DNA of 64,000 nucleotides. It comes from a virus. The notes under the pieces are model-generated. The model was not told the origin of the DNA. It did not search any database and saw nothing but the letters and a program-made list of their open reading frames with translations. The DNA is taken from positions 32,001-96,000 of IMG/VR virus record IMGVR_UViG_3300045988_010396; one strand, written 5' to 3'. This document shows positions 1,188 to 60,300 of the stretch, piece after piece (positions within the stretch are counted from its first letter, which is position 1; every line of letters starts with the position of its first letter). The position numbers and the translations under genes were made by a program.

Positions 1188-1362
1188 ATAACTATGATTT
1201 ATAATAAACTAAATATATCTGTCCACCAAGAGTAAACATATTTACTATAGCCTCTCTTGGTATACCAAGTTCATTTGCCTGGCTTATTATACCCCTAATT
1301 GTCTGACCTACTATACAAGTCATTACTTTATTCTTCTCACCCATGTTCTAACTATTTTATAG

Positions 1363-1436
1363 TTTCGGGAGTAGGACTCGAACCTACAACCTCCAGCTTA
1401 TGAGGCTGGTTAGCTACCATTGCTAGCATCCCGAGA
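1363..1436 (-). tRNA. tRNA-Met (CAT)
   Basis: reverse complement has GGTTCGAGTCC T-arm, a 7-bp acceptor stem and anticodon loop CTCATAA. Confidence 0.8.
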
Positions 1437-1612
1437 TATTGCCAAGATTTGGTATGGTACTTGGCATTGTAAGGTTAACCTTATACTTACACCCCCAATC
1501 ACCTACACCTATTAAGCTGTTGTTTATACAGGTCAGCTCCTGTTGAGGTTTACCTAGTAGCATTGGGTGTTACTCTATCACTGTAGGTAAGACAGTTTTT
1601 AGTAACTTGTAG

Positions 1613-1686
1613 AGCCTCCCCTCAGAATCGAACTGAGACTCCCTGTTTACAAGGCAGGTTTGCTAAACCATTAACACTAAGGAGGC
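1613..1686 (-). tRNA. tRNA-Thr (TGT)
   Basis: acceptor GCCTCCT/GGGAGGC, T-loop TTCGATT, anticodon loop CTTGTAA. Confidence 0.7.
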
Positions 1687-1690
1687 ATAG

Positions 1691-1772
1691 TACCCCTGAC
1701 AGGAGTTGAACCTGCAATCCCCAAGGGCGTTGGTGTTTAAGACCAATGTGTATTCCATTCCACCACAGGGGC
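1691..1772 (-). tRNA. tRNA-Leu (TAA), type II
   Basis: 82 nt, acceptor GCCCCTG/CAGGGGT, anticodon loop CTTAAAC, 15-nt variable arm. Confidence 0.75.
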
Positions 1773-1779
1773 ATTATAC

Positions 1780-2232
1780 TTAGTAAGGTCTCAAATCACA
1801 TAACTCAAAGAGGTACTTGTATTTCAGTATATTATGTATGAATGTCTCACACTCAGACCTAATTCCTGCATATAGAGTTCCTTCTGGAATATTCTCATAG
1901 AACTTAGTAGTTCCTGCTTTGACCTCATTGATGAAGTCAATAGCATTAAGAGCATCACTAGGAGCACCTTTAATCACATTAGGTTGCATATGTCCAAGCA
2001 ATCCCTGATATTCCTCTGCCAATCCATCCTGATAGTCTGAGATAATACCTAGGAACTCATCTAGGTAAACATGAATATTCTTCTTAGGAGCTGCCCAATG
2101 CAGATTCTTACACTTAGTCTTCCAACCCTCCAGAAGGTTAATGAAGCTAATGAAGAATTGACTAGGGTTCTCATCTTGAGAAGGCTTGAACATCTCATCC
2201 ATTAGCTGATTATCTAGAAAAACACTATCCAT
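1780..2232 (-). CDS. hypothetical protein embedded in the tRNA array
   Basis: 150-aa ORF between two tRNA-Leu genes. Confidence 0.45.
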   Translation of the reverse strand: MDSVFLDNQLMDEMFKPSQDENPSQFFISFINLLEGWKTKCKNLHWAAPKKNIHVYLDEFLGIISDYQDGLAEEYQGLLGHMQPNVIKGAPSDALNAIDFINEVKAGTTKFYENIPEGTLYAGIRSECETFIHNILKYKYLFELCDLRPY

Positions 2233-2318
2233 TTCTCTAATTCTTTATTTGATACTGCAAAGTTAAGCTAAATATTTAACCTATGCAAGTAAATTACATT
2301 ATTTAACTAAATTATCTG

Positions 2319-2401
2319 TACCCTCCAAGGGACTTGAACCCTTATGTACTTAGTACACTAGTTTCTAAGACTAGCCTGTATACCCATTCCAGCAGGAGGG
2401 T
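2319..2401 (-). tRNA. tRNA-Leu (TAG), type II
   Basis: anticodon stem CTAGT/ACTAG, loop CTTAGAA, long variable arm, T-arm GGGTTCAAGTCCC. Confidence 0.75.
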
Positions 2402-2411
2402 GTAAGCTCTC

Positions 2412-2858
2412 TTATAGAGAGCTATATTCTTTTGTAGCATCAAAGCTAGGGCAAGCTTTTGAGCTAAAGTCTCTGTGCCCATGTATAGATGCTTGAGGGT
2501 ACTTAGTCTTTAACTCCTTAAGTAACTTAACTAATGACTGCTTCTGCTGAGCAGTCCTAGTATCTTTAGGTGTCTTGCCATCAGAAGCACATCCTCCTAT
2601 ATAGCATACTCCAATAGAGTTAGCATTATGGCCAGCACAGTGTGCACCTATAATAGACTCATCTCTACCTGTATGTATAGAACCATCTCTATATATTACA
2701 TAATGATAGCCTATATCAGAGAAGCCCCTTTGAAGGTGCCACTGTCTTATAGTATCTACACTATAGTCTTTACCTTCTGGTGTGGCACTACAATGTACTA
2801 TTATTTCATTTATTTTTCTTGCCATACATATATTATAAAACTTATCATGTTCCCCCAC
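2412..2858 (-). CDS. N-acetylmuramoyl-L-alanine amidase (Amidase_2/PGRP fold), probable endolysin
   Basis: IVHCSAT...DIGYHYVI..DG.I..GR...AH...NSIGV..IGG pattern typical of T7-lysozyme-like amidases. Confidence 0.8.
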   Translation of the reverse strand: MGEHDKFYNICMARKINEIIVHCSATPEGKDYSVDTIRQWHLQRGFSDIGYHYVIYRDGSIHTGRDESIIGAHCAGHNANSIGVCYIGGCASDGKTPKDTRTAQQKQSLVKLLKELKTKYPQASIHGHRDFSSKACPSFDATKEYSSL

Positions 2859-2922
2859 TAGGAGTCGAACCTAGCTCTCAGGATTAAAAGTCCAGAGTAT
2901 CCACCATCAATGCTTTGGGGGA
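2850..2922 (-). tRNA. tRNA-Lys (TTT)
   Basis: acceptor TCCCCCA/TGGGGGA, anticodon loop CTTTTAA, T-loop TTCGACT. Confidence 0.75.
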
Positions 2923-2994
2923 GTGAAGCAGGGTCTTTTTAAGAGGTTTCATCTTATTCCTAGGAAAGATTTTTACCCTGCACACCCTCTAGTG

Positions 2995-3068
2995 CGCCTC
3001 CACAAGGACTTGAACCTTGAGTCCCCTGCTTAAGGGGCAGGTGCTTTAACCAATTCAGCTATAGAGGC
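2995..3068 (-). tRNA. tRNA-Lys (CTT)
   Basis: acceptor GCCTCTA/TGGAGGC, anticodon stem CCTGC/GCAGG, loop CCCTTAA. Confidence 0.75.
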
Positions 3069-3074
3069 TTATAG

Positions 3075-3149
3075 ACTTGTAGGTGGGATTTGAACCCACG
3101 AATCACCAGTTTTGCAGACTGTGCCCTTAGACCACTCAGGTACTCCAAG
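3075..3149 (-). tRNA. tRNA-Cys (GCA)
   Basis: T-arm GTGGGTTCAAATCCCAC, anticodon loop CTGCAAA; one acceptor mismatch. Confidence 0.65.
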
Positions 3150-3153
3150 ATAG

Positions 3154-3231
3154 TACTGGCAGAGGGACTTGAACCCCCATGTGACCAATTACCCTTTCTA
3201 GACTGTATAAGAGTCAGGGGATATGCCAGTA
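3154..3231 (-). ncRNA. atypical tRNA-like element (anticodon unassigned)
   Basis: acceptor ACTGGCA/TGCCAGT and T-arm GGGGGTTCAAGTCCCTC are clear, but no canonical D-arm or anticodon arm; internal hairpin GACT-CTTATAC-AGTC. Confidence 0.4.
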
Positions 3232-3238
3232 TGTTGGG

Positions 3239-3311
3239 GTGTCTGATGGGAGTTGAACCCACACTACTTGGAGCCACAATCCAAGGCTCTGACCAATTAA
3301 GCTACAGACAC
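3239..3311 (-). tRNA. tRNA-His (GTG)
   Basis: extra 5' G(-1), discriminator C, anticodon stem TTGGA/TCCAA, loop TTGTGGC. Confidence 0.8.
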
Positions 3312-3313
3312 AG

Positions 3314-3385
3314 TTCTGATGAGTGGACTCGAACCACTAGCTACTGCCTTATGAGAGCAGCTTTCTACCATTGAAATACATCAGA
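3314..3385 (-). tRNA. tRNA with CAT anticodon (second copy; Met/fMet or Ile-lysidine type)
   Basis: acceptor TCTGATG/CATCAGA, anticodon loop CTCATAA. Confidence 0.75.
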
Positions 3386-3391
3386 ATATGT

Positions 3392-3465
3392 AGGTACAAT
3401 AGGACTTGAACCTATAACCTCTTGAATATCAGTCAAGTACTCTAACCAATTGAGTTATGTACCTA
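3392..3465 (-). tRNA. tRNA-Ile (GAT)
   Basis: acceptor AGGTACA/TGTACCT, anticodon stem CTTGA/TCAAG, loop CTGATAT. Confidence 0.8.
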
Positions 3466-3469
3466 TATG

Positions 3470-3542
3470 TGGGAAAGATAAGAATCGAACTTATATCCAA
3501 GGATTTTCAGTCCTCTGCATAGACCATCTTTGCTACTTTCCC
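3470..3542 (-). tRNA. tRNA-Phe (GAA)
   Basis: acceptor GGGAAAG/CTTTCCC, discriminator A, anticodon loop CTGAAAA. Confidence 0.75.
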
Positions 3543-3545
3543 ATT

Positions 3546-3619
3546 GCAGATAGAGTAAGACTCGAACTTACATCTAAGGGTTAACAGCCCCTTGTTCTAA
3601 CCTTTGAACTAAAGACCCA
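3546..3619 (-). tRNA. tRNA-Asn (GTT)-like; acceptor strands do not pair in my reading (possible pseudo-tRNA)
   Basis: D-arm, anticodon arm (loop CTGTTAA) and T-arm resemble E. coli tRNA-Asn, but 5' GGGTCTT does not pair with 3' TCTATCT. Confidence 0.4.
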
Positions 3620-3627
3620 TTATTTGT

Positions 3628-3699
3628 TGCTCCTACAAGACTCGAACTTGTGACCTTTGGTATGTAAAACCACTGTTCTTAACCACTGAACTAAGGAGC
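3628..3699 (-). tRNA. tRNA-Val (TAC)
   Basis: acceptor GCTCCTT/TAGGAGC, D-arm GTTC..GAAC, anticodon loop TTTACAT. Confidence 0.7.
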
Positions 3700-3783
3700 A
3701 TTGATAGGGTAGTTTCTTTAACCTCTAACTACCAAAAGAGGGTTCTAGCAAAAGCTCAACATTATGAAACACGGAAACTAATG

Positions 3784-3856
3784 TGGAGAATGAGAGACTC
3801 GAACCCTCTAATATAGCTTGCAAAGCTATCAGTTTAGCCAGTTAGCTTAATTCCCC
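3784..3856 (-). tRNA. tRNA-Ala (TGC)
   Basis: anticodon stem ATAGC/GCTAT, loop TTTGCAA, discriminator A. Confidence 0.75.
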
Positions 3857-3861
3857 ATTAG

Positions 3862-3934
3862 TATGGGTACTTGGACTCGAACCAAGGACAACTACATCCC
3901 AAATGTAGCATTCTACCTACTGAATTACACCCAT
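3862..3934 (-). tRNA. tRNA-Pro (TGG)
   Basis: anticodon stem CTACA/TGTAG, loop TTTGGGA, T-arm CTTGGTTCGAGTCCAAG. Confidence 0.8.
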
Positions 3935-3940
3935 ATATTG

Positions 3941-4023
3941 CGGAGAGATGAGGTCCCGACCCCCAAGCATTACTGCCCCCATTGTTTTCAAGACAAGTCC
4001 CAGTCCCACTGAGTTATCTCTCC
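3941..4023 (-). tRNA. tRNA-Ser (TGA), type II
   Basis: acceptor GGAGAGA/TCTCTCC, discriminator G, anticodon loop CTTGAAA, long variable arm. Confidence 0.7.
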
Positions 4024-4075
4024 ATTTGCCTACCTACCACTGTAGGATAGGACTTTGGTTTTGTTATAAGTGTGC

Positions 4076-4146
4076 AGACTATGAGGGAATTGAACCCTAA
4101 CCTTCACATTGACAGTGTGATATGCAAACCACTACACTACATAGTC
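4076..4146 (-). tRNA. tRNA-Asp (GTC)
   Basis: acceptor GACTATG/CATAGTC, anticodon stem TCACA/TGTGA, loop CTGTCAA. Confidence 0.7.
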
Positions 4147-4158
4147 TATATAATTTAG

Positions 4159-4230
4159 TACCCCCTGATAGAATCGAACTATCATTCTAAGTTTAGAAGA
4201 CTCATGTATTATCCATTATACTAAGAGGGC
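4159..4230 (-). tRNA. tRNA-Arg (TCT)
   Basis: D-arm GTAT..ATAC, anticodon loop CTTCTAA, T-arm GATAGTTCGATTCTATC. Confidence 0.7.
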
Positions 4231-4238
4231 ATCTCTAG

Positions 4239-4310
4239 TTGGGACTAGAGGTCTCGAACCTCTGCTATAAGAGCCAAAATCTCATGTGACTGCCACTACA
4301 CCAAGTCCCA
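4239..4310 (-). tRNA. tRNA-Gln (TTG)
   Basis: acceptor TGGGACT/AGTCCCA, anticodon loop TTTTGGC, T-arm AGAGGTTCGAGACCTCT. Confidence 0.7.
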
Positions 4311-9403: not shown

Positions 9404-9489
9404 ACTCCCTTAGCTCAGTTGGTTCCGCAAGGCTTGAGAGCATCGGACTTTTAATCCGAGGGTCATGGGTTCGAGTCCCATAGGGAGTA
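9404..9489 (+). tRNA. tRNA-Lys (TTT)-like with a roughly 13-nt insertion in the D-loop
   Basis: acceptor ACTCCCT/AGGGAGT, anticodon stem TCGGA/TCCGA, loop CTTTTAA, T-arm ATGGGTTCGAGTCCCAT; D-arm GCTC...GAGC encloses extra CCGCAAGGCTTGA. Confidence 0.55.
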
Positions 9490-9506
9490 CTATTCATTTC
9501 ATTCAA

Positions 9507-9826
9507 GGGGCTGTATTTGGTCTTGACTGGTGGCTACTTGGTATGAGGACATGCAGAGACTGATGGAGAGACATCAAAACTTTAGGTGGCAACAGAATTT
9601 CTGCACCTGTAGCTCTTGCTGCTTAAGCAATCTACTGAGTTAGTCACTGACTTGGAAACAGAATAGTGACAAGACAAGATTTCTTGCATAGATAAATGCA
9701 AGTGGTGGACTATGTTGACAATCCAGTCAACCCCAGCAGAGAACCAACTGCATAATAAAGTGGTAAGCATGTGTAATCCTTATATTGAGAGCTATTAGGA
9801 CAGGGGTTCGACTCCCCTCAGCTCCA
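9507..9826 (+). ncRNA. ssrA: tmRNA (SsrA-like)
   Basis: 5' GGGGCTGTATTTGG...GACTGG and 3' GGACAGGGGTTCGACTCCCCTCAGCTCCA closely match the E. coli ssrA ends; acceptor GGGGCTG/CAGCTCC; internal tag frame GGC AAC AGA ATT TCT GCA CCT GTA GCT CTT GCT GCT TAA = ...NRISAPVALAA*. Confidence 0.8.
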
Positions 9827-9902
9827 GAGGCACGTTGTTAGATACTTCCACGTAGTGTGCCTTGGGTTAAAAGCTAGATTCTAACAAAAAAAAAAAGATT
9901 AT

Positions 9903-10205
9903 ATGTTAATAACAGAAAGAGCAAAAAGGAAAATAAATACTTTATTAGATAGTACTAATGATTGTATAAACTATCCTAAAACTAATAAAGATGGTTATGG
10001 GGATATTCAAGAGATTGTGGAGGGTAAAAAGCTCCACATGTTAGCTCATAGAGTATCTTATCAGTTATATACAGGAGAAGACATATCACCTGATGATATA
10101 ATATGTCATAGATGTGATAATCCTGCTTGTATTAATCCTAGACATTTGTTCAGAGGCACTCACTCAGATAATATTAAAGATAAGGTTTGTACCCATTATT
10201 CATAA
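9903..10205 (+). CDS. HNH homing endonuclease
   Basis: [13 protein letters not shown]...[15 protein letters not shown]...HSDN (HNH_3-type). Confidence 0.7.
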
Positions 10206-11005: not shown

Positions 11006-12429
11006 ATGTGTTCAAAAGTTAATCCTAACCTAAAGCCTGTACCTAAGTTTGAAAACACTCAACTGGCAGGTGGTTATGGTGCATTAGCTGCCAGGCAGTC
11101 CAATGTAGCATTGCTTAGAAGAGCAGTGCTGGCTAATCTCCTTTGAGAGGATGTAGCATATATGGATGGTGAGAGAGTAGCCAATGAAATACAGAGGTTA
11201 ATACCTCTGTGCCCTGCTGAGGATGTATATAATATAGCTCTTGAAGCTAGGTTAATGCAGAAACTGAGGCATACTCCATTGTTTATAGCAGTGGAAATGT
11301 GCAAGTATCCTGAACATAAGTTATTTGTTAAGGACTTGCTACCAAAGATAGTTACAAGAGCTGATATGCTCACTGACTTCTTGGCTATATATATATATAT
11401 TGGAAGGATGGCAAGCATCCTATCTGTAACCAAGCTAAGAAGGGTCTTGCTCTAGCCTTCCACAACTTCAATGAGTATAAGTTGGCTAAGTATGACAGAG
11501 ATGCTGCTATCAAGCTCAGGGATGTGATGTTCTTGGTACATGCAAAGCCTAGAAACCAGTATGAGCAGGAGTTGTTCAATAAGGTAGCTGAGAGAACTCT
11601 CACACCACCTGAGACATGGGAAGTCATGTTAAGTAGAGGTGATGACAAGAAGGCTACTTGGACTAAGCTCATTACAGAGGGTAAGATTGGAGGTCTGGCT
11701 ATGTTGAGAAACATAGCTAATATGCAGAAGGCCAATGTGGATAGAAGGACTATCCAAGATGGCCTTAAGACACTGAGAAGCTCAATGCTATTACCTCTTG
11801 ACTTCTGGAAGGCTGCTAGAATGAACCCAGCATTTGAGAGAGACATTGAGGATGCTATGATAGAGGCATATAAGAACTTACCTAAACTTCCTGGCAAGAC
11901 ACTATTTATAGTGGATGTATCAGGTTCTATGGGTTTTTTAACCTCTGGTAGCTCTCAGTTCAACAGGATGGACCAAGCTTGTGCTATGGCTATCTTGGCA
12001 GCTAATCAGTGTGAGGACTATGAGCTTGTAGCTACAGCAGGTAATGATGATTCTAAAATAAGTGCCTCAGAGTGGATTGAATATCCAAAGAGAGGTTTTG
12101 CTCTTGCTCCACAGATAATGGATACCAGGCATAGGATTAGTGGTGGAGGTATATTCACCAGGCAGTGCCTAGAGTGGTGTAAGGATAAGTTCAAAGACAA
12201 GAAGTTTGATAGAATTATCATATTCTCAGACTCTCAAGACTGTGACTATCCTGAGAAGAGAGTACCTAAACCATTTGGTACATATAACTATATTGTAGAT
12301 GTATCTGCTCATACAAGAGGAGTGAACTACAAGGGTGTATGGACTGCTGAGGTTTCAGGCTGGTCAGAACATTTCTTGACTTATATTGCAGCTCTTGAGG
12401 GATTGCAGAATAAGTTTGAGGAGCAATAA
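11006..12429 (+). pseudogene. rsr: Ro60 / TROVE-domain plus vWA RNA-binding protein (Rsr-like), interrupted
   Basis: N-terminus ...QLAGGYGAL.. (Ro60 NAGGY motif) runs into an in-frame TGA at 11144-11146; continues in the same frame to 11455; after the (TA)7 tract at 11386-11400 the homologous reading moves to frame 1 (...FHNFNEYKLAKYDRD..VMFLVHAKP like Ro60 ALAVTKYKQRNGW..LLRLSHLKP); AMLRNIANMQKA and vWA MIDAS FIVDVSGSMG match human Ro60 ALLRNLGKMTA / LLAVDVSASM. Confidence 0.8.
11386..11400. repeat. (TA)7 dinucleotide tract at the frame junction inside the Ro60 gene
   Basis: tatatatatatatat; losing one TA unit would join the upstream (frame 2) and downstream (frame 1) TROVE segments. Confidence 0.9.
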
Positions 12430-12580
12430 ATAAAAAGAGCCTATAAGTGAAAGTCAGAGTTACTTCAATATTGGGATATTTTGACACTCTGACAAAGTGT
12501 TCTATAGGCTTTTAAGCTCTTCTATAGTTAGAAAGAGTTTCGAGACCCGATTGCCTTTGATGCATCTCGGGTCTTGCGAT

Positions 12581-12717
12581 GGAGGAGTTAGCTCAGAGGT
12601 TAGAGCAGTTAAACAAGACACTCTACATACTGTTCTCTAGTAATAGTAGTGATTTGTAGAGATACTTCAAGCACTTTCATTGCACAGGTCATAGGTTCGA
12701 GTCCTATACTCCTCCCA
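12581..12717 (+). ncRNA. tRNA-like RNA with about 85-nt insertion in place of the anticodon arm; candidate YrlA/Y-RNA-like tRNA mimic (copy 1)
   Basis: acceptor GGAGGAG/CTCCTCC plus CA, D-arm GCTCAGAGGTTAGAGC, T-arm ATAGGTTCGAGTCCTAT; insertion contains AGTAGTG...ATACTTCAAGC. Confidence 0.6.
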
Positions 12718-12740
12718 ACTTTGTTGGATTTTGTGTGTTT

Positions 12741-12777
12741 TACCTCACTGGTATGTGAATATAGGTGAGGTTTTTAC
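12741..12777 (+). terminator. Rho-independent terminator after Y-RNA-like copy 1
   Basis: ACCTCAC...GTGAGGT hairpin followed by TTTTT. Confidence 0.55.
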
Positions 12778-12780
12778 AAG

Positions 12781-12918
12781 GCGGAGTAGCTAAATGGTTA
12801 AAGCAACACCCTTACAGAATTTATCTGGTAAAGCAGTAGTGGGTTGTCAGGGTTACTTCAAGGTTATAGCATTAGTTTTGGGTGCTAAAGAATGTAAGTT
12901 CGAGTCTTACCTCCGCCA
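12781..12918 (+). ncRNA. tRNA-like RNA with inserted module; candidate YrlA/Y-RNA-like (copy 2)
   Basis: acceptor GGCGGAG/CTCCGCC, D-arm GCTAAATGGTTAAAGC, T-arm GTAAGTTCGAGTCTTAC; anticodon-stem-like CACCC...GGGTG encloses about 66 nt containing GCAGTAGTGGGTTGTCAGGGTTACTTCAAGG. Confidence 0.6.
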
Positions 12919-13127
12919 CTTATTTACCTACCTCACCTAGCATAGTTATACAGGATAAGACCCATTATGATGGAGCACCGATGAAACTATCCTAGCCACG
13001 CTGGTATTGCTATTCAGTGAGTGAGAAAATGAATAGCCTCGAAGCATAGTGGAGATAACGTCAAGGAGTACCATCCTTAGCAGCTATGTAAAATTGGTTG
13101 ACAATCTGGAAAGACAGATAATAAAAT

Positions 13128-13257
13128 GGGGGAGTAGCTAAATTGGTTACTATACTCTTGCTGTTATTCTCTGGAAGCAGTAGTGTTAGCAAAGAGTTAC
13201 TTCAAGCATTCATCTGGTAAATGAAAGTATATTGGTTCGAGTCCAATCTCCCCCGCA
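13128..13257 (+). ncRNA. tRNA-like RNA with inserted module; candidate YrlA/Y-RNA-like (copy 3)
   Basis: acceptor GGGGGAG/CTCCCCC, T-arm ATTGGTTCGAGTCCAAT; insertion GGAAGCAGTAGTGTTAGCAAAGAGTTACTTCAAGC. Confidence 0.55.
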
Positions 13258-13457
13258 AAATAGAGGTTAGTGAATGTTACAGTTACTTCAATTATGATTA
13301 GTATATTGGTTTAACATTCAATCAAGAAAGGAGTAGATTTATTCACAACTTTTTTAACTCAACCCAACTGTGGCAGAGTTGTTCTACCTCTATTAAGAGG
13401 GCTATGGTAGTAATACTATAGTCCTCTTTCTTTTTGAAATTGTGTTAGCTACATATA

Positions 13458-13874
13458 TTGTATTACTTAAAAAAAAAAAGTATGGCAAAAACAAATGAAA
13501 GTGTCGGGAGAGTCGAGGACTTGAAGGCACAAGTGAAGGACCTTCTAGGCTTAGATGCCATGATGGATGAGAGTGTGACTAAGGAAATGAAGGACGAACT
13601 TATCGCTCAGGCTAAGAACAAAGGTGATAAGCACATCGAAGAGGTGATGGACACCATTGAGAAGGCACTTGAGAAGGTTAAGGACCCTGAGTTCAAGGCT
13701 ATCATCGCCTCTATCATATGGACTAAGTGTCCTATAGGTATGCAGAAGTCCTGCATTGAGTTTCACAACAAGCTGTTGTGTGTTGCGATGGCTGCTCATA
13801 TGGATAAGCAGACTAAGGGTAATTCCCTTGCAGGTCTTGCACTGCTGTCAACTGTACTTGGAGATAAGAGATAA
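13458..13874 (+). CDS. hypothetical protein
   Basis: 138-aa ORF, K/E-rich. Confidence 0.4.
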   Translation: MYYLKKKSMAKTNESVGRVEDLKAQVKDLLGLDAMMDESVTKEMKDELIAQAKNKGDKHIEEVMDTIEKALEKVKDPEFKAIIASIIWTKCPIGMQKSCIEFHNKLLCVAMAAHMDKQTKGNSLAGLALLSTVLGDKR

Positions 13875-16455: not shown

Positions 16456-16927
16456 TATGAAACAAAAGATATTTAACTATATACTACTGTCTTGGATGGT
16501 AATCCTTACAGGATATATTGCCTTAGAGAGTGGGAAAGCCCCTCCTGATGCTGAGTTTGAGCTAAAACTCAATGATAGGGAGATTATGAAAGACTTGGAA
16601 GCTAATGTTACCAATATGCTTGCGGTGTGTGAATACTATGGAGTAAAACATCCTAGGGTAGTCACAGCTCAAGCTATATTGGAGTCAGGTAACTTTGAGT
16701 CCAAATTATTTAAGGAGTATAATAATCCCTTTGGTCTTTACAATAGTAAGAAGAAGGATTACTTCAAGTTCAAGCATTGGACAGATGCTGTAGCAGCCTA
16801 TATCTCTATGGTGGAGTATAGGTATGTTGGAGGTGATTATTATAGATTCCTTGAGGAGCTTCCCTATGCCCAAGACAATAGATATATAGATAAAGTTAGA
16901 ATAATAGAAAGTAATTTGCCCCCGTAG
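16433..16927 (+). CDS. peptidoglycan hydrolase, glucosaminidase (FlgJ-like family) with N-terminal membrane anchor
   Basis: AQAILESGNFESKLFKEYNNPFGLY matches the Glucosaminidase-domain AQAALESGWG...NN.FGIK motif. Confidence 0.6.
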   Translation: MCLIKQSSMKQKIFNYILLSWMVILTGYIALESGKAPPDAEFELKLNDREIMKDLEANVTNMLAVCEYYGVKHPRVVTAQAILESGNFESKLFKEYNNPFGLYNSKKKDYFKFKHWTDAVAAYISMVEYRYVGGDYYRFLEELPYAQDNRYIDKVRIIESNLPP

Positions 16928-20343: not shown

Positions 20344-20874
20344 ATGGCAAAAGCATTGATTTTAGCTAAGACTGGGTTTGGTAAATCCAGTTCACTGGTT
20401 GGTGTACCCTCTGCTGGTATATTAGGCTTGGACCCTAAGGAGACTTATCTCCTTAGCTGTGTTAATAAGCCTCTGCCTATCAAGGGTGCATCTAAGATTT
20501 ATGTGCCTATACCTATGCAGGGTATTACTCCTGCTAACTTAGGTTCAGTCATAGGTAAGGGCAACAGGATTATCACCAAGGATGCCAAGATTGTAGCTGC
20601 TGCTATAGAGTTGCTAATCAATTCACCCTTCAAGAACATAGTAGTTGATGATATGAACTATCTATCGCAGGACTACTATATGAAGAATGCCATGAAAGGT
20701 GGTTGGGACACTCCTAAGCAGATAGGTTACAATATGGGTCTTATCTTTGACCAGATTGACAATGTGCCTGAGGATAAGAACATTATCTGTATGGCTCACT
20801 TTGAGACCTACAAGGATAAGAATGGTGACTCCATCTCTTACAAGTACAAATCAACTGGTAACATGGTAGCATAA
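20344..20874 (+). CDS. small P-loop protein
   Basis: N-terminal AKTGFGKSS Walker-A-like motif. Confidence 0.35.
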   Translation: MAKALILAKTGFGKSSSLVGVPSAGILGLDPKETYLLSCVNKPLPIKGASKIYVPIPMQGITPANLGSVIGKGNRIITKDAKIVAAAIELLINSPFKNIVVDDMNYLSQDYYMKNAMKGGWDTPKQIGYNMGLIFDQIDNVPEDKNIICMAHFETYKDKNGDSISYKYKSTGNMVA

Positions 20875-21084
20875 CATCTGCCATTATCTATCTAATTGCT
20901 GGAACACCCTAAAGACAACTGAACTACAAAGTAATTGGTAACAATAAGCTTGAATGTTTGAAAATCAGTTGTATTCTTAGTGATGGAGAAATGGGCAATC
21001 AGCAGCCAAGGGACTCTACGAGTTCAAGGTTCATCGACTATCCCCTGTTGTGGGGGAGTACATTTATAAAGTAATCAATTATAT

Positions 21085-21699
21085 TTGGAAATGGTAGACA
21101 ATAGAGAAGTACACATTTATGCATTAAGACATCCTGATACCTTAGAAATAAGGTATGTCGGTAAAACAGTGAGAAAATTAAGTAGAAGGTTAGGGAATCA
21201 TATTGCAAATGCTAAAGGTAACCAGCACAATAAGCATTTAAGTAATTGGATTCTTAATATCTTGAAGGAAAATAAGAAACCTGTAATAGAACTCTTGGAA
21301 ACTTGTCAAAGTAATAACTGGCAAGAAAGAGAGCAATATTGGATTTCTCAATTTCCTAATCTGATAAATCTCACTGCTGGAGGAGATGGATGTGTAGGTT
21401 TTATTCATGATTCTAAAGCTATAGAAAAGATTAGACAATCTAAATTTGGTACTAAACATTCTGTAGAATTTAAGGAAGCTATGAGTAAAAGGCTTAAAGG
21501 TGTGCCTCTTAGTGAAGAACATAAAAGTAAAATAGGTTTAGCTAATAAGGGAAGGAAGGCTTCGGAAACTGCAAGAAAGAGGCTATCAGAATCCCACAAA
21601 GGTATTACTCAGAGTGAGGAATCCAAAAGAAAAAGAAGTGAATCTATTAAACTTTGGTGGACTAAGAGAAAGTCTATTGAAGATATAGTCAAATCTTAA
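21085..21699 (+). CDS. GIY-YIG homing endonuclease
   Basis: HIYAL...IRYVGKT...R...N (GIY-YIG) with C-terminal K/R-rich NUMOD-like repeats. Confidence 0.75.
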   Translation: MEMVDNREVHIYALRHPDTLEIRYVGKTVRKLSRRLGNHIANAKGNQHNKHLSNWILNILKENKKPVIELLETCQSNNWQEREQYWISQFPNLINLTAGGDGCVGFIHDSKAIEKIRQSKFGTKHSVEFKEAMSKRLKGVPLSEEHKSKIGLANKGRKASETARKRLSESHKGITQSEESKRKRSESIKLWWTKRKSIEDIVKS

Positions 21700-31588: not shown

Positions 31589-32191
31589 ATGGAGTGTAGT
31601 ATTTGGATTTATCAAAAATTCTTAGTATCTTTGCACTTTGCAACTAAAGTTTTTGAAGATATGGAAGAAATTTGGAAAGACATTCCTGGATATGAGGGAT
31701 TGTACCAAGTTAGTAGTCTTGGAAGGTTCAAAGCTCTGAGTAGAGTAAGAAAGGGAATTTATGGAAATAGAATCTACAAGGAAAAGTTATTATCTCCTAA
31801 AGTGAATTTTGATAGGTACTACTATGTAACCTTAACTAAGGAAGGTAAGAAAACTAGTTATAGAGCACATAGACTAGTAGCTTTAGCTTTTCTTGGAGAT
31901 AGCAATCTAGTCATAGACCACATTGACGGTAATCCCTTGAATAATGAGGTTACTAATCTAAGATATGTATCTCAAGCTGAGAATGTTTCTAATCCTAATA
32001 CTATATGTAAGCAGTATAAGCCTGTTATACAGTTGTCTATGGATGATACTGTTATAGCTGAGTATCCTTCAGTTATGAGTGCTGCACTAGCAGTGGGAGC
32101 TTATAAATATGGGACTCATATAGGGCAGTGCTGTAATGGAAAGAGGACTACTGCATATAATTATAAATGGAAATGGAAAGAAAAAGTATAA
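31589..32191 (+). CDS. HNH homing endonuclease (NUMOD4 plus HNH_3)
   Basis: WKDIPGYEGLYQVSSLGRFKAL then AHRLVALAFLG...DHIDGNPLNN...N. Confidence 0.75.
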   Translation: MECSIWIYQKFLVSLHFATKVFEDMEEIWKDIPGYEGLYQVSSLGRFKALSRVRKGIYGNRIYKEKLLSPKVNFDRYYYVTLTKEGKKTSYRAHRLVALAFLGDSNLVIDHIDGNPLNNEVTNLRYVSQAENVSNPNTICKQYKPVIQLSMDDTVIAEYPSVMSAALAVGAYKYGTHIGQCCNGKRTTAYNYKWKWKEKV

Positions 32192-57331: not shown

Positions 57332-60300
57332 TCCTAAGCAGTCAAGCTCATGTTGCTTCTCCTGTTCAGTCCAACTATTGAAAAACTCTTCAATGTTTAT
57401 TGTTTCTCTATACTTAGTTCTAAGTGCTTCTTGCTGTTCGGAGGATAAACTACTAAAGCTTATGCCTGTTGGGTTACTTTCTACCTTTATGGGCTTAGCT
57501 CCAGGTTTCTTAACTATAGGCTTTCTCTTAGTTTTAACCTTACCTATAGTAAGCTCACCATCCCTCTTTACTTGAGGCTCTGGCTTAGCTTCTGCGCTTT
57601 CAACCTTACTCTCTGTAGGAGTAATCTCTCCTACTAGTGCTTTCTCAGATGCAGATAACTTGTCATACTGTATTGATATAGGAGATTCAGGTATCTGTCC
57701 TACTTCTCCTAGAACAGGATTAGCCTGCTTGTACTCTTTATCATTTAATAGTAACTGATTACCTTTGGCTACTGAGTAAGTATTATTGCTGTTAGGTGCA
57801 GGATATTCTACATGTATAGGTATGATATTTAATGATTTAACCTTAATCCCATATTTACCTTCCAAGAACTGCTTATATAAAGATAGCTGTCTTGAGTACT
57901 TAGCCGCTTTTTCTTCACTTATATTCTTGGCTCTGTGGGTCTTCATATCAAAGATATAGAAGTTGCCCTCCCTATCATAAGCCAGTAAGTCAAGTGTTCC
58001 AGCAACTGCTATCTCATGTACCCCTCCATTACTGTCAGTAACCTGTAGAGTACCTGTAGCTACTATATCTCTAGGTATAACTGTAAGACCTTGAGCAACA
58101 AGATAATTCTTGAATTTCTGTAACTGTTCAGCAAATCTACTAAGAGCCTCTTTTGAAGCATTGGGGTAAACCATCTCCACTGACTTACCATCACTTAACC
58201 AACCTACTGGACTAGGGGTGATATACCCATTAAAGAAATCCCTTACAAATTCATCAACACCAGTACCTATATTAGTAGATGGTGTAACCCAGGGGCTGTT
58301 AGGGTCAAATCTCTCGCCAGCCTGCTCATCAGCTTGTATGATTGAAGTAACTCTGACATATGTTTTACCTGTTCTTGTGTTGACATAAGTAAGACCATCT
58401 TCTGATAGTTGTACTACCCTAGAGTCTGCCATTATCTTTTCACTGACTTCTTGAGCTTTCTCCATAGCAGTAGTAACTTTATTTCTAACTTCTGTGCCTT
58501 GTTCAGTAAGGCCAGTATCAGTATCCACCTTCTCTCCTGATTGAGTAACAGCTGTTCCTGTATCTTGACTACTGGTAGAAGTAGAATTATCTGCATTAAC
58601 TACTACAGAAGTAGGATTAGCAGGTACAGGCTCTCTTAGAGCTACTGGGCTTGATACCTCAACTCCACTAATATCTCTCTCAAGTCTGTCAATTCCTACT
58701 CTCAAGATGTTGTCATATATAAGGTTAGTTACATTCTCCTCCTTATAATGCTTAGTATTAGGAGTATAGTAGCTGGGGTCTTTATCAACTTGCCAATTTA
58801 CACCCTGCCTAAAAGAACCACTAGGCATAAGCAGATTAGACAGTATTACCGCCATATTCTTAGCAGTTACCTCTTTCTCTGTTACACTGTTCACTATTCT
58901 TCCTAAGTTCTCATCACCTAAGTATAGGTCTAGTCCTAGACTTCCATCTACATTAGCAGGTCTTATAGAGTATTCAGCACTTGTTGAGTATATATGTCTC
59001 CTCAACTTATTATTTATATTCTCTATTATGGATATAGCCTTACTTTCACCAGTGAAACTAGTACCATCAGAAGTTAATTCTGTTAGGTCATTATTCTTAA
59101 CCAGACTATTAAGTACTCTTATAAAGTCTCTAGTTCTGCTGTTAAAATAAACTATATCAGTAGCACTGCCTGTTGATAGCACCTCTGCAAGTGATTTTCC
59201 ATTTCTAGGGCTGGTAGTCTCATCCAGAGTCTTAGTCAAGACTGGTATCTCAGATACAGACTCATCTCCCTTCATAGTGGGCAACCTATAGTATAATGTA
59301 GGTTTGCCATTCTTATCCTTTTTAGCAAAGAGTCTGCTTGCAACCTTTCTAACATATTTGTTATATGCTGCATTCCTTCTTATAGGGTCTTGGGTTGCAT
59401 CCTCAATTATAGCTTTGTCTTCTGGAGAAAGGTCTTCACTTATAAGTGAAGCAAAGTCCCTGTCAGTTTCTCTTGATGTACTTATATTGAGAGGAGGGCT
59501 AGCCACTATTACACTTGAGGTTACTTTTTTGTTGCCTGCTGATATAATCTTATTAGGTTGCTCAATAGCAAGTTGTCTTATCTGCCCTGCTCTGCTATCT
59601 AGTTCAGTTCTTGGTAGTACCCCAATAGGCTGGTATCTCTTATTGCCAATCACTATAGGACCATCACCATCCTCAACTATAGCTAACACTGGCAGATGCT
59701 GCTCATCAGTATAAGCAGTAGAACCATTCTTCATACTCTCCTTGACTCCTGTAGTTACATCATCAAGAGCAGCATAGAATACTACTGACCTATTTCCTGA
59801 CTTTCTGCTAAGCTTACCACTTCTAAGATACTCATCAACTCTCCATTCTCTAAACTTTCTACTTAGGAAGCTACTAAGATTACTGTTTATTCTAGCTAAT
59901 GATATAGTGGGCTTCTGTTGTGGAACTTCTGTAGGTGAGGTAGTCTTTTCAGCTTCTTTCTTCCCCACTTTAATAGTATGACTTGCCTGTTGTAGTAGAG
60001 AACCAGACCTCTCATTTATATCACCCCCCTGAGTAGCACTACCTAACAGCCTTACTGCTTCTTTAGCTATAGCTTCCTGTAGCTCTTCTGTAGAGTTATA
60101 GTGCTTACTTCCTAGTTTGTTTATTGCACTTATAGCTGCTTGCTTTGCATCCTCATCATATATAGCACTGGCATTCCTGACCACATTTATGGCTTGCTCT
60201 GCTGCTGTAAGTACCTCTCCATCATTATTATTGATGAAGTCATCTGATAATACAGTAACACCTTCACCCCCAGTTTCACTAGGTTGAGTAGGTGTAGTAA

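Follow-up and report, generated by a model that had tools for sequence, protein, structure and literature searches.

The window analysed here is a stretch of 64,000 nt (record positions 32,001–96,000) of the IMG/VR record IMGVR_UViG_3300045988_010396, whose source genome is that of a crAss-like phage, and our subject is the region at 12435–13438 (+ strand; window coordinates throughout), behind a gene for Ro60, where one folded RNA module is present in five copies, with the repeated motif GTTACTTCAA as their constant core. Phages of the crAss-like type are described as ubiquitous and very plentiful in the human gut (PMC8375218). The Ro60 gene (TROVE plus vWA; 11006–12429, +), delimited with Pfam, tblastn and a comparison with relatives, is disrupted. 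Its C-terminal open reading frame (ORF) of 315 amino acids, which ends at 12429, carries the Pfam TROVE (E 6e-10) and Ro60 vWA domains, and its product is 75–80% identical (tblastn), in two frames and with a stop within LL*ED, to gp96 of Bacteroides phage crAss001, annotated as “TROVE domain-containing protein” and encoded by a gene reported as early (PMC8375218, PMC10136315). The in-frame TGA lies at 11145–11147, where eleven relatives have TGG (Trp, LLWED), and an 8-nt (TA)4 expansion at about 11386–11401, seen in no relative having a detectable tract, shifts the frame; the gene is either a recent pseudogene or affected by sequence errors.

The array begins 6 nt past the Ro60 stop on the same strand, an adjacency that recurs in all 47 related loci (collected via the Ro60 protein). 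In order, it comprises a free-standing Y-like RNA (module A, 12435–12513), three tRNA-like RNAs with an insert (chimera 1, 12582–12715; chimera 2, 12780–12918; chimera 3, 13128–13255), a long free-standing Y-like RNA (module E, 13259–13394) and an intrinsic terminator closing the array (13395–13438; a 15-bp stem, then a T-run), all on the + strand. In crAss001, the ~900 nt after the TROVE gene bear no annotated feature, yet hold the same kinds of elements and also end in a hairpin plus T-run. A BLAST search of the whole array against 50,697 phage records matched only crAss001-type phages, and these in the last third of the array only.

An earlier note on this DNA, made from its letters, had singled out five copies of a motif here, three of them in tRNA-like insertions and two in free-standing hairpins flanking the array. 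All five copies are present on the + strand: RRTTACTTCAA is exact at 12458–12468, 12851–12861, 13195–13205 and 13281–13291, and the fifth copy, at 12660–12670, has one mismatch (AGATACTTCAA). Four positions given in the note were right, whereas its “about 12680” was ~20 nt off; likewise, the first hairpin (12435–12513) is as it described, but the second (13259–13394) is larger than its 13265–13330. On its two strands together, the window has 15 occurrences of the 8-mer TACTTCAA, where 300 second-order Markov simulations gave 8.3 ± 2.8, and five same-strand copies fall within 824 nt (+), against a simulated maximum of three per 900 nt over the same 300 simulations. The cluster is not compositional, because the density of the motif elsewhere in the window is ordinary; two more exact copies, at 16757 (+) and 58342–58352 (−), lack the structural context of the module. 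In the 47 related phage loci, TTAC[AT]TCAA is clustered downstream of Ro60, on its strand, and almost absent from the remaining ~5 kb.

The module runs through a variable stem (stem b), a bulged nucleotide that is nearly always U, two fixed pairs (5′ CU with 3′ AG, or CC with GG), an internal loop whose sides are ..UGUU and UG plus 2–5 nt, a helix of 7–9 bp (P_a, typically CUCU.../...AGAG) and, immediately 3′ of the P_a strand, the motif UUAC(U/A)UCA. In the free form the termini of the RNA meet in stem b, and the loop closing P_a starts with the motif; in the embedded form it is stem b that has a closing loop, of 3–9 nt (GAAG, GUAA, GUAAAG and others), and P_a leads into a tRNA-shaped RNA. 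These are two circularly permuted forms of one module. Unique copies number 35 in the embedded and 56 in the free form; they agree at the conserved positions, and over these 91 unique modules the motif is invariant while the helices differ by compensatory substitutions.

The module is real, and both of its helices are kept by compensatory substitutions. From 25 natural free modules aligned with MAFFT, RNAalifold recovered the bulged terminal stem unaided, with double changes in 9 of 12 pairs and none of the 12 broken; once P_a is included, 94.8% of cells pair and covariation scores 0.65, whereas slid controls stay at 36–50% and at or below 0.105. An alignment of 106 model hits (72 distinct sequences), fitted to the model and hence leaning towards the structure, is 94.6% paired, with double changes in 18 of 19 pairs. 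For 36 embedded cores, the consensus structure given by RNAalifold contains P_a and the inner stem as well as the bulged U and both fixed pairs, and the motif stays single-stranded. Whole chimeras, whose fold is extended by a T arm and an acceptor stem of 7 bp, reach 97.4% pairing over 25 pairs (39–48.5% when slid); since chimeras were detected by their acceptor and T stems, only P_a and stem b count as independent tests there. Cell counts overstate the number of independent events, the loci being related, and the weight rests on paralogues within a genome and on distant lineages. Single-sequence folding was unreliable (P_a of module E was missed, and acceptor and D regions were mis-paired), so that the fold was resolved only by comparative analysis.

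Module A illustrates the free form: its terminal stem (12435–12444/12504–12513) is followed by a bulged A (12445), the pairs of AG (12446–7) with CU (12502–3), an internal loop of UGAAA (12448–52) and AAAGUGUU (12494–501), and P_a (12453–59/12487–93), and the motif UUACUUCAA (12460–68) opens a 27-nt loop. The assignment draws on pair counts and RNAalifold over the 25 homologues and on a covariance-model score (71 bits, see below); the single-sequence fold has z = −3.3. Module E, identified by parsing and by its covarying homologues, has a terminal stem at 13259–67/13386–94, the bulged U, AG and UG, a P_a formed by UGUUACAG (13275–82) and CUGUGGCA (13368–75), the motif at 13283–91 and a P_a loop of about 85 nt (74 nt past the motif) with a conserved AAGAAAGGAGUAGAUUU. 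Its homologues covary, with UACAACAC/GUGUUGUA and AAAGAU/AUCUUU in crAss001. A ribosome-binding site with a small ORF was considered at AAGAAAGGAGUAGAUUU and rejected, crAss001 having an ORF of 11 codons there and the window no start codon.

Among the chimeras, chimera 1 has its module core at 12621–12672 and the motif variant AUACUUCAA at 12662–12670. Chimera 3 has its core at 13155–13207, with P_a at 13155–62/13188–96, CU (13169–70) paired with AG (13182–3), a bulged U (13181), an inner CUG/CAG stem with a GAAG loop (13171–80) and the motif at 13197–13205. Chimera 2 (core 12809–12863, motif 12853–12861) was delimited with alignments, and ARAGORN makes a call at 12846–12919 in its intact sequence; its outer fixed pair is broken by an A at 12823, where four related loci (L003, L004, L007 and L047) have C, and this copy may be slightly degenerate.

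Two covariance models, R1 for the free module (crAss-type sequences only) and R2 for the embedded core, were run over both strands of the 64-kb window. R1 scored modules A and E at 71 and 21.4 bits, and R2 scored chimeras 3, 1 and 2 at 65.6, 63.4 and 55.9 bits; the weak score of module E is due to its long loop. The models match just these five sites, the next best candidate reaching 16.4 bits (E 0.11), and, as the window or near-identical sequences were in both training sets, it is the absence of other hits that is informative. In the related loci, all 106 R1 and 130 R2 hits lie on the Ro60 strand, downstream of the Ro60 stop. Two observations stand apart. The bases of the small loop that closes the embedded stem usually complement a portion of the motif (GUAA/GUAG with UUAC, GAAG/GGAG with CUUC; e.g., 12642–12645 and 13174–13177), which may be a tertiary contact or chance and is inapplicable to free modules. 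Moreover, a 17-nt string, GTCAGAGTTACTTCAAT, at 58336–58352 (−) is identical, not complementary, to a helix strand plus motif of module A; it sits in an ORF of 2215 amino acids (..TYVRVTSII..), with a rough chance estimate of about 2e-4, and has no module structure around it (R2 16.4 bits, E 0.11).

Ro60 binds a bulged helix near the paired ends of Y RNAs, mainly through one conserved strand, while the other end recruits an effector, PNPase in Deinococcus (PMC4201824; bioRxiv 10.1101/312249). For the YrlA class, the motif GNCGAA(N)G has been proposed to contact Rsr/Ro60 (PMC4201824). The Ro60 of a Thermus phage binds two phage-encoded Y-like RNAs and the host PNPase (PMC12135203), and a bacterial Ro60 operon has been described (PMC7790460). 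A search for homologous proteins listed only Ro60 proteins at least 77% identical; distant Ro60 loci came from the phage collection, where tblastn found homologues in 81 records, and from bacterial genomes scanned with a profile. Three unrelated phages, namely Xanthomonas phage Olaya, Caulobacter phage CcrColossus and gut phage csAssE-Sib (Ro60 24–37% identical), have several RNAs of the same architecture just upstream of Ro60: stem, U, GG, (U/C)G, N2-5, 8-bp helix, (U/A)UACUUC(G), long loop, helix partner, ..(G)UU, CC, stem. Olaya, CcrColossus and a contig of a Prevotella metagenome-assembled genome (MAG) give sub-threshold matches to the Rfam YrlA family (50, 42 and 40 bits for several of the phage RNAs). 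In the Xanthomonas phage homologue, GGGCAG-UUACUU is aligned on cggCga-AUGCuu of Rfam YrlA, directly after helix 1 (consensus “CgaAUGCuu”), and the consensus stretch aligned with the motif overlaps the proposed Rsr-contact motif. R1 also recovers Olaya's short free module, with 21.9 bits (E 0.035).

The association extends to bacteria: in 80 bacterial or MAG Ro60 loci, a stringent parser found 79 modules on the Ro60 strand, spread over 47 loci; the opposite strand gave 2 and shuffled sequences 1. The parser itself selects for pairing, and its false positives were gauged by these two controls only. The module-bearing loci include chromosomal contigs of Bradyrhizobium and Acidobacteriota. Over the phages and bacteria that have the module beside Ro60, the Ro60 proteins are only 24–40% identical. 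At the gathering threshold, Rfam reported no YrlA in 20 of the bacterial Ro60 loci, though 17 of these carry modules, so that a missing Rfam hit says little; clear YrlA-type RNAs elsewhere score 26–50 bits or escape detection, against a gathering threshold of 69 bits for RF02553. A search of the accessible literature (subscription-only papers excluded) found no paper linking Crassvirales with Y RNAs or Ro60 RNAs. Separately, the annotated tRNA-Tyr and tRNA-Lys of csAssE-Sib (2001–2099 and 2143–2274 of its locus, L052) are each flanked by the two strands of a Y-type module; UUACUUC abuts the tRNA 5′ end, and the Ro60-side stem would arise from leader and trailer, which makes a third topology beside the permuted YrlA and the embedded form. 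The Ro60 of csAssE-Sib, annotated as “Ro sixty-related protein”, is encoded downstream of the two tRNAs.

The earlier note had offered three readings of the motif (the Ro60-binding helix, an RNA processing site, or a remnant of module duplication) and a helix pairing AGUAGUG/AGUGAA with GUUACUU. A Ro60-binding element does appear to fit best, given the Ro60-specific, same-strand association and the alignment with YrlA, but not in the pairing proposed. AGTAGTG lies 8–12 nt upstream of each of the three embedded copies, and AGUAGU/GUUACU is pairable in 92.6% of embedded-core cells; the pairing nevertheless shows no compensatory change, loses a G-C pair in 15 of 36 cores and excludes the covarying helices, and it fails in free modules, where two of the upstream bases belong to the variable stem. 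A shared helix supported by compensatory changes, which the note had called for, exists in P_a and stem b and not in that pairing; in AGUAGUG, the last bases of the inner stem are followed by the bulged U, then by AG from the fixed pairs and lastly by UG from the internal loop. An H-type pseudoknot of AGUAGU/GUUACU with P_a was also rejected, on the geometry we infer, since no linker would cross the 8–9 bp helix. The complementarity of AGUAGUG and GUUACU may be a relic of a tRNA D stem: the 5′ half of the Olaya YrlA (L050 2207–2277) aligns to the tRNA model (28.2 bits), with stem b as acceptor strand and GUAG..UUAC as D stem. A processing site is not general, the motif being internal in three copies, and a duplication remnant falls short as a full explanation, for the copies are paralogous but the motif is invariant while the flanking helices compensate. 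The suggested resemblance to metazoan Y RNAs was not substantiated, as no Rfam Y_RNA match appeared at E<=10; for a further candidate resemblance, to human Y1 RNA (GGUAGUGA, GUUAUCUCAAUU, UUGUUCUAC), a text search for the strings found nothing, and it carries no weight here.

The three chimeras are RNAs of 128–139 nt with a non-permuted tRNA shape and open acceptor stems, interrupted by a structured insert of 55–62 nt, which lies either at the D/anticodon junction or within the anticodon stem, in its 5′ strand. Each scaffold combines a D arm and a T arm (GGUUCGAGUCC in the latter) with an acceptor stem of 7 bp that covaries and an anticodon-like hairpin of 5 bp and 7 nt. The Rfam tRNA model gives chimera 1 43.4 bits only by skipping 74 nt, and the others partial matches of 26–28 bits (27.9 for chimera 3; threshold 29); once the insert is deleted in silico, ARAGORN reports tRNA-Glu(ttc), Pro-UGG and tRNA-Thr(ggt) from chimeras 1, 2 and 3. 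The anticodon is not conserved (GGU/GAU/CAU in one scaffold lineage, UUC/UUU/GUG in others), and some loops have 8–9 nt. The scaffolds read as tRNA-derived mimics rather than decoders, though they might be charged. The embedded form was found only where Ro60 is at least ~68% identical to that of crAss001, and looks derived, because the nearest outgroup (the Prevotella-MAG contig, Ro60 59%) keeps four classical permuted YrlA RNAs upstream of Ro60. We found no published description of an insert at this tRNA site or of a module-in-tRNA arrangement.

At face value, the clean tRNAs obtained by removing the insert might suggest that the chimeras are real tRNA genes (Glu-UUC, Pro-UGG, Thr-GGU) with a removable, intron-like or mobile insert, the motif and its helix marking the excision site. 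The two halves of chimera 1 indeed restore a perfect 5-bp anticodon stem with a U33/A37 loop, the insert of chimera 2 is flanked by a 10-nt near-repeat (GGTTAAAGCA / GGTTATAGCA), as a target duplication would be, and the RtcB ligase, often present in bacterial Ro60 operons, also counts in its favour. We consider this explanation unlikely, however: the same module stands free of any tRNA here and is permuted in the YrlA RNAs of many lineages, and it is therefore a functional RNA unit, not a discardable spacer. In addition, the insert helices are maintained by compensatory changes, the anticodon loops vary in identity and length among close relatives, and no Intron_gpI match falls in the region, although the same model finds one at 20774–21155. 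The insert is also too short for a group I intron (>200 nt) and lies outside the anticodon loop, and no bacterial splicing endonuclease is known for such sites (bioRxiv 10.1101/312249).

Another explanation would see in the module a site of binding or processing for some different factor, its closeness to Ro60 reflecting no more than shared early expression; candidates for the factor are an RNase of the host, an enzyme that modifies tRNA and the small conserved proteins encoded just downstream. This explanation would account for an array that is intact behind a doubly disrupted Ro60 gene and for the motif of csAssE-Sib abutting the tRNA 5′ end, where RNase P would cut, and the binding of the module by Ro60 is itself a prediction. 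We hold it to be improbable all the same, in that the association with Ro60 spans phages and bacteria whose neighbouring genes are otherwise unrelated, is strand-specific (79 modules against 2) and places the motif in the YrlA region proposed to contact Rsr (PMC4201824). Finally, that the repeats are a functionless compositional artefact, or the decaying leftovers of a recent tandem duplication, has next to no chance of being right: the copies are paralogous, the region is AT-rich and the window has two further exact copies, but the clustering was unmatched in 300 simulations, the motif stays the same throughout the 91 unique modules as the helices next to it compensate, and it is conserved out to bacteria with Ro60 ~36–40% identical.

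The interpretation that we favour, and regard as likely, is that 12435–13438 is an array of five non-coding RNAs serving as Y RNA-type partners of the phage Ro60. Several points weigh against it. The link to Ro60 is drawn from genomic association and homology to YrlA, and the stop and frameshift in the Ro60 gene of the window mean that the proposed partner may not be made here, although sequencing error or the use of a host Ro60 would each reconcile a broken gene with intact RNAs. No YrlA or Y_RNA match was obtained in 12350–13500 even at E<=10, where only tRNA-type matches appeared, and the literal GNCGAA(N0-1)G is absent, with (C/G)AG-UUACUUCA at the corresponding position. The related phages are not independent samples, the chimera search used acceptor and T stems, and the single-sequence minimum free energy fold of module E gives the terminal stem but not P_a. 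The terminal stem and P_a of modules A and E covary and flank the conserved U-AG-UG ... UUACUUCA; in the chimeras the module stem is closed by a loop, so that this feature is present in permuted form only. The RNAs are related to YrlA-type Y RNAs, yet depart from them on three defining counts (the GNCGAA motif, the permuted domain and the Rfam threshold).

According to this favoured reading, each RNA carries one and the same Ro60-proximal module, which corresponds to the basal module on the Ro60 side of bacterial and phage YrlA. Ro60 would bind the bulged helix, the UG/UGUU loop and UUACUUCA, mainly via the conserved strand, as in known Y RNAs; positional homology and the exclusive association with Ro60 are the reasons for placing the site there. 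The remainder of each RNA would then be its effector end, a mere loop in modules A and E and a tRNA scaffold in the other three, where the module appears grafted between the D arm and the anticodon-like hairpin, so that bound Ro60 would be tethered to a tRNA-like shape with free acceptor ends. Co-transcription of the array with the early Ro60 gene is probable, the RNAs presumably being cut out by tRNA-processing enzymes at the scaffolds and the transcript ended by the terminator at 13395–13438. A more speculative extension, which we advance as possible but rather doubtful, is that in crAss001-like phages the complete tRNAs which received the module have kept their processing, so that they acquire a free 5′ end and a CCA-3′ end and may even be charged; they would then make up a new, lineage-specific class of “tRNA-Y RNA chimeras” derived from permuted YrlA. 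If true, a chimera could bring the phage Ro60 and a bound nuclease onto the ribosome, EF-Tu, synthetases, anticodon nucleases or tRNA-targeting defence systems; alternatively, it could serve as a Ro60-guarded decoy.

Compared with known systems, the array is closest to YrlA, which is likewise Ro60-adjacent, on the same strand and often in several copies, with a Ro60-side stem that has one conserved strand and a tRNA-related domain (PMC4201824; bioRxiv 10.1101/312249). YrlA-type RNAs of Xanthomonas and Caulobacter phages and of many bacteria share the stem, U bulge, GG/CC or AG/CU, UG .. UGUU, helix and UACUUC, and at the junction that follows the basal helix, UUACUU here has its counterpart in AUGCuu of the Rfam consensus. 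Unlike here, the tRNA-like domain of YrlA is permuted (T arm, closed acceptor-like stem, D arm), without anticodon loop or free ends, and lies inside the loop of the Ro60-side stem, whereas in three of our RNAs the module lies inside an un-permuted tRNA scaffold; moreover, our array is downstream of Ro60, not upstream, and modules A and E have no tRNA-like domain. These two modules resemble the minimal Y RNAs (Salmonella YrlB; Yrl1/Yrl2 of Thermus phage phiLo, PMC12135203), being a stem, internal loop, stem and loop formed from paired ends. Like our RNAs, Yrl1 and Yrl2 are encoded beside a phage Ro60, which they have been shown to bind, in a complex with the host PNPase (PMC12135203). The phiLo RNAs, however, were chosen by a CGAA in the bulge, in place of which UUACUUCA and UG/UGUU are found here. 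Metazoan Y RNA (RF00019) is also a Ro60 partner with a bulged end helix as binding site and a variable effector loop, an arrangement also predicted for our RNAs; it shows no detectable similarity to them in sequence or by covariance model, its bulged-C helix (GGUCCGA / UUGACC) is absent here, and our RNAs lie in bacterial-type transcription units, not Pol III genes. Finally, tRNA mimics (transfer-messenger RNA (tmRNA), viral tRNA-like structures, and permuted or intron-containing tRNA genes) share acceptor, T, D and anticodon-like arms with the chimeras, but these carry a structured insert of 55–62 nt and unconserved anticodon loops.

Between the five RNAs lie elements outside the module family. 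A GC-rich 10-bp hairpin at 12537–12580 (+; −19.4 kcal/mol, z = −3.2) matches at 90% an unrelated, unannotated phage scaffold (MT837866) and, here and in locus L047, takes the place of the second free module of relatives (L003 2710–2797). A spacer hairpin at 12743–12770 (+; CCUCA-CUGGUAUGUGAAUAUAGG-UGAGG, fold z = −3.2) has a loop, TGGTATGTGAATATAGG, that is exact in 15 related loci (L004, L005, L007, L010, L011, L020, L028, L030, L031, L033–35 and L046–48), between or beside tRNA genes, while its stem is not always the same (CCUCA/UGAGG here but GCUGC/GCAGC in L005); a role as promoter or processing signal is conceivable. The spacer at 12919–13127 (+) folds no better than shuffles, and BLAST of 12900–13135 against the phage collection gave no match; directly before chimera 3, at 13098–13127, it holds a sigma-70-like TTGACA-18-TAAAAT (score 11/12) of doubtful relevance for a Bacteroides phage.

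At the gathering threshold, an Rfam scan of the whole window reported only tRNA, tmRNA and one group I intron, at 20774–21155 (+), which barely attains the threshold. The window also has an array of ~18 tRNA genes at 1362–4310 (−) and, at 9404–9829 (+), an 86–87 nt tRNA with an abnormal anticodon loop (ARAGORN “tRNA-???”) that directly precedes the phage tmRNA (tag ASGGLC*), followed by a gene for an HNH endonuclease (9903–10205, +).

The occurrence of five to seven Ro60-type RNAs behind a crAss-like TROVE gene gives an early protein candidate partners open to direct testing, and suggests that the phage deploys a Ro60 ribonucleoprotein early in infection. The module also provides a definition broader than GNCGAA (a bulged U, two fixed pairs, a UG/UGUU loop, a helix and UACUUC), which yields Y RNA candidates in 47 of the 80 bacterial Ro60 loci, against 0 of the 20 scanned in which the Rfam model reached its threshold. 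The module and tRNA shapes go together in at least three topologies (permuted YrlA, module strands around a tRNA in csAssE-Sib, module within a tRNA here), which bears on the origin of Y RNAs from tRNAs. Ro60 orthologues of gut bacteria are discussed as triggers of anti-Ro60 autoimmunity, and abundant phage Ro60 ribonucleoproteins may thus be of immunological interest.

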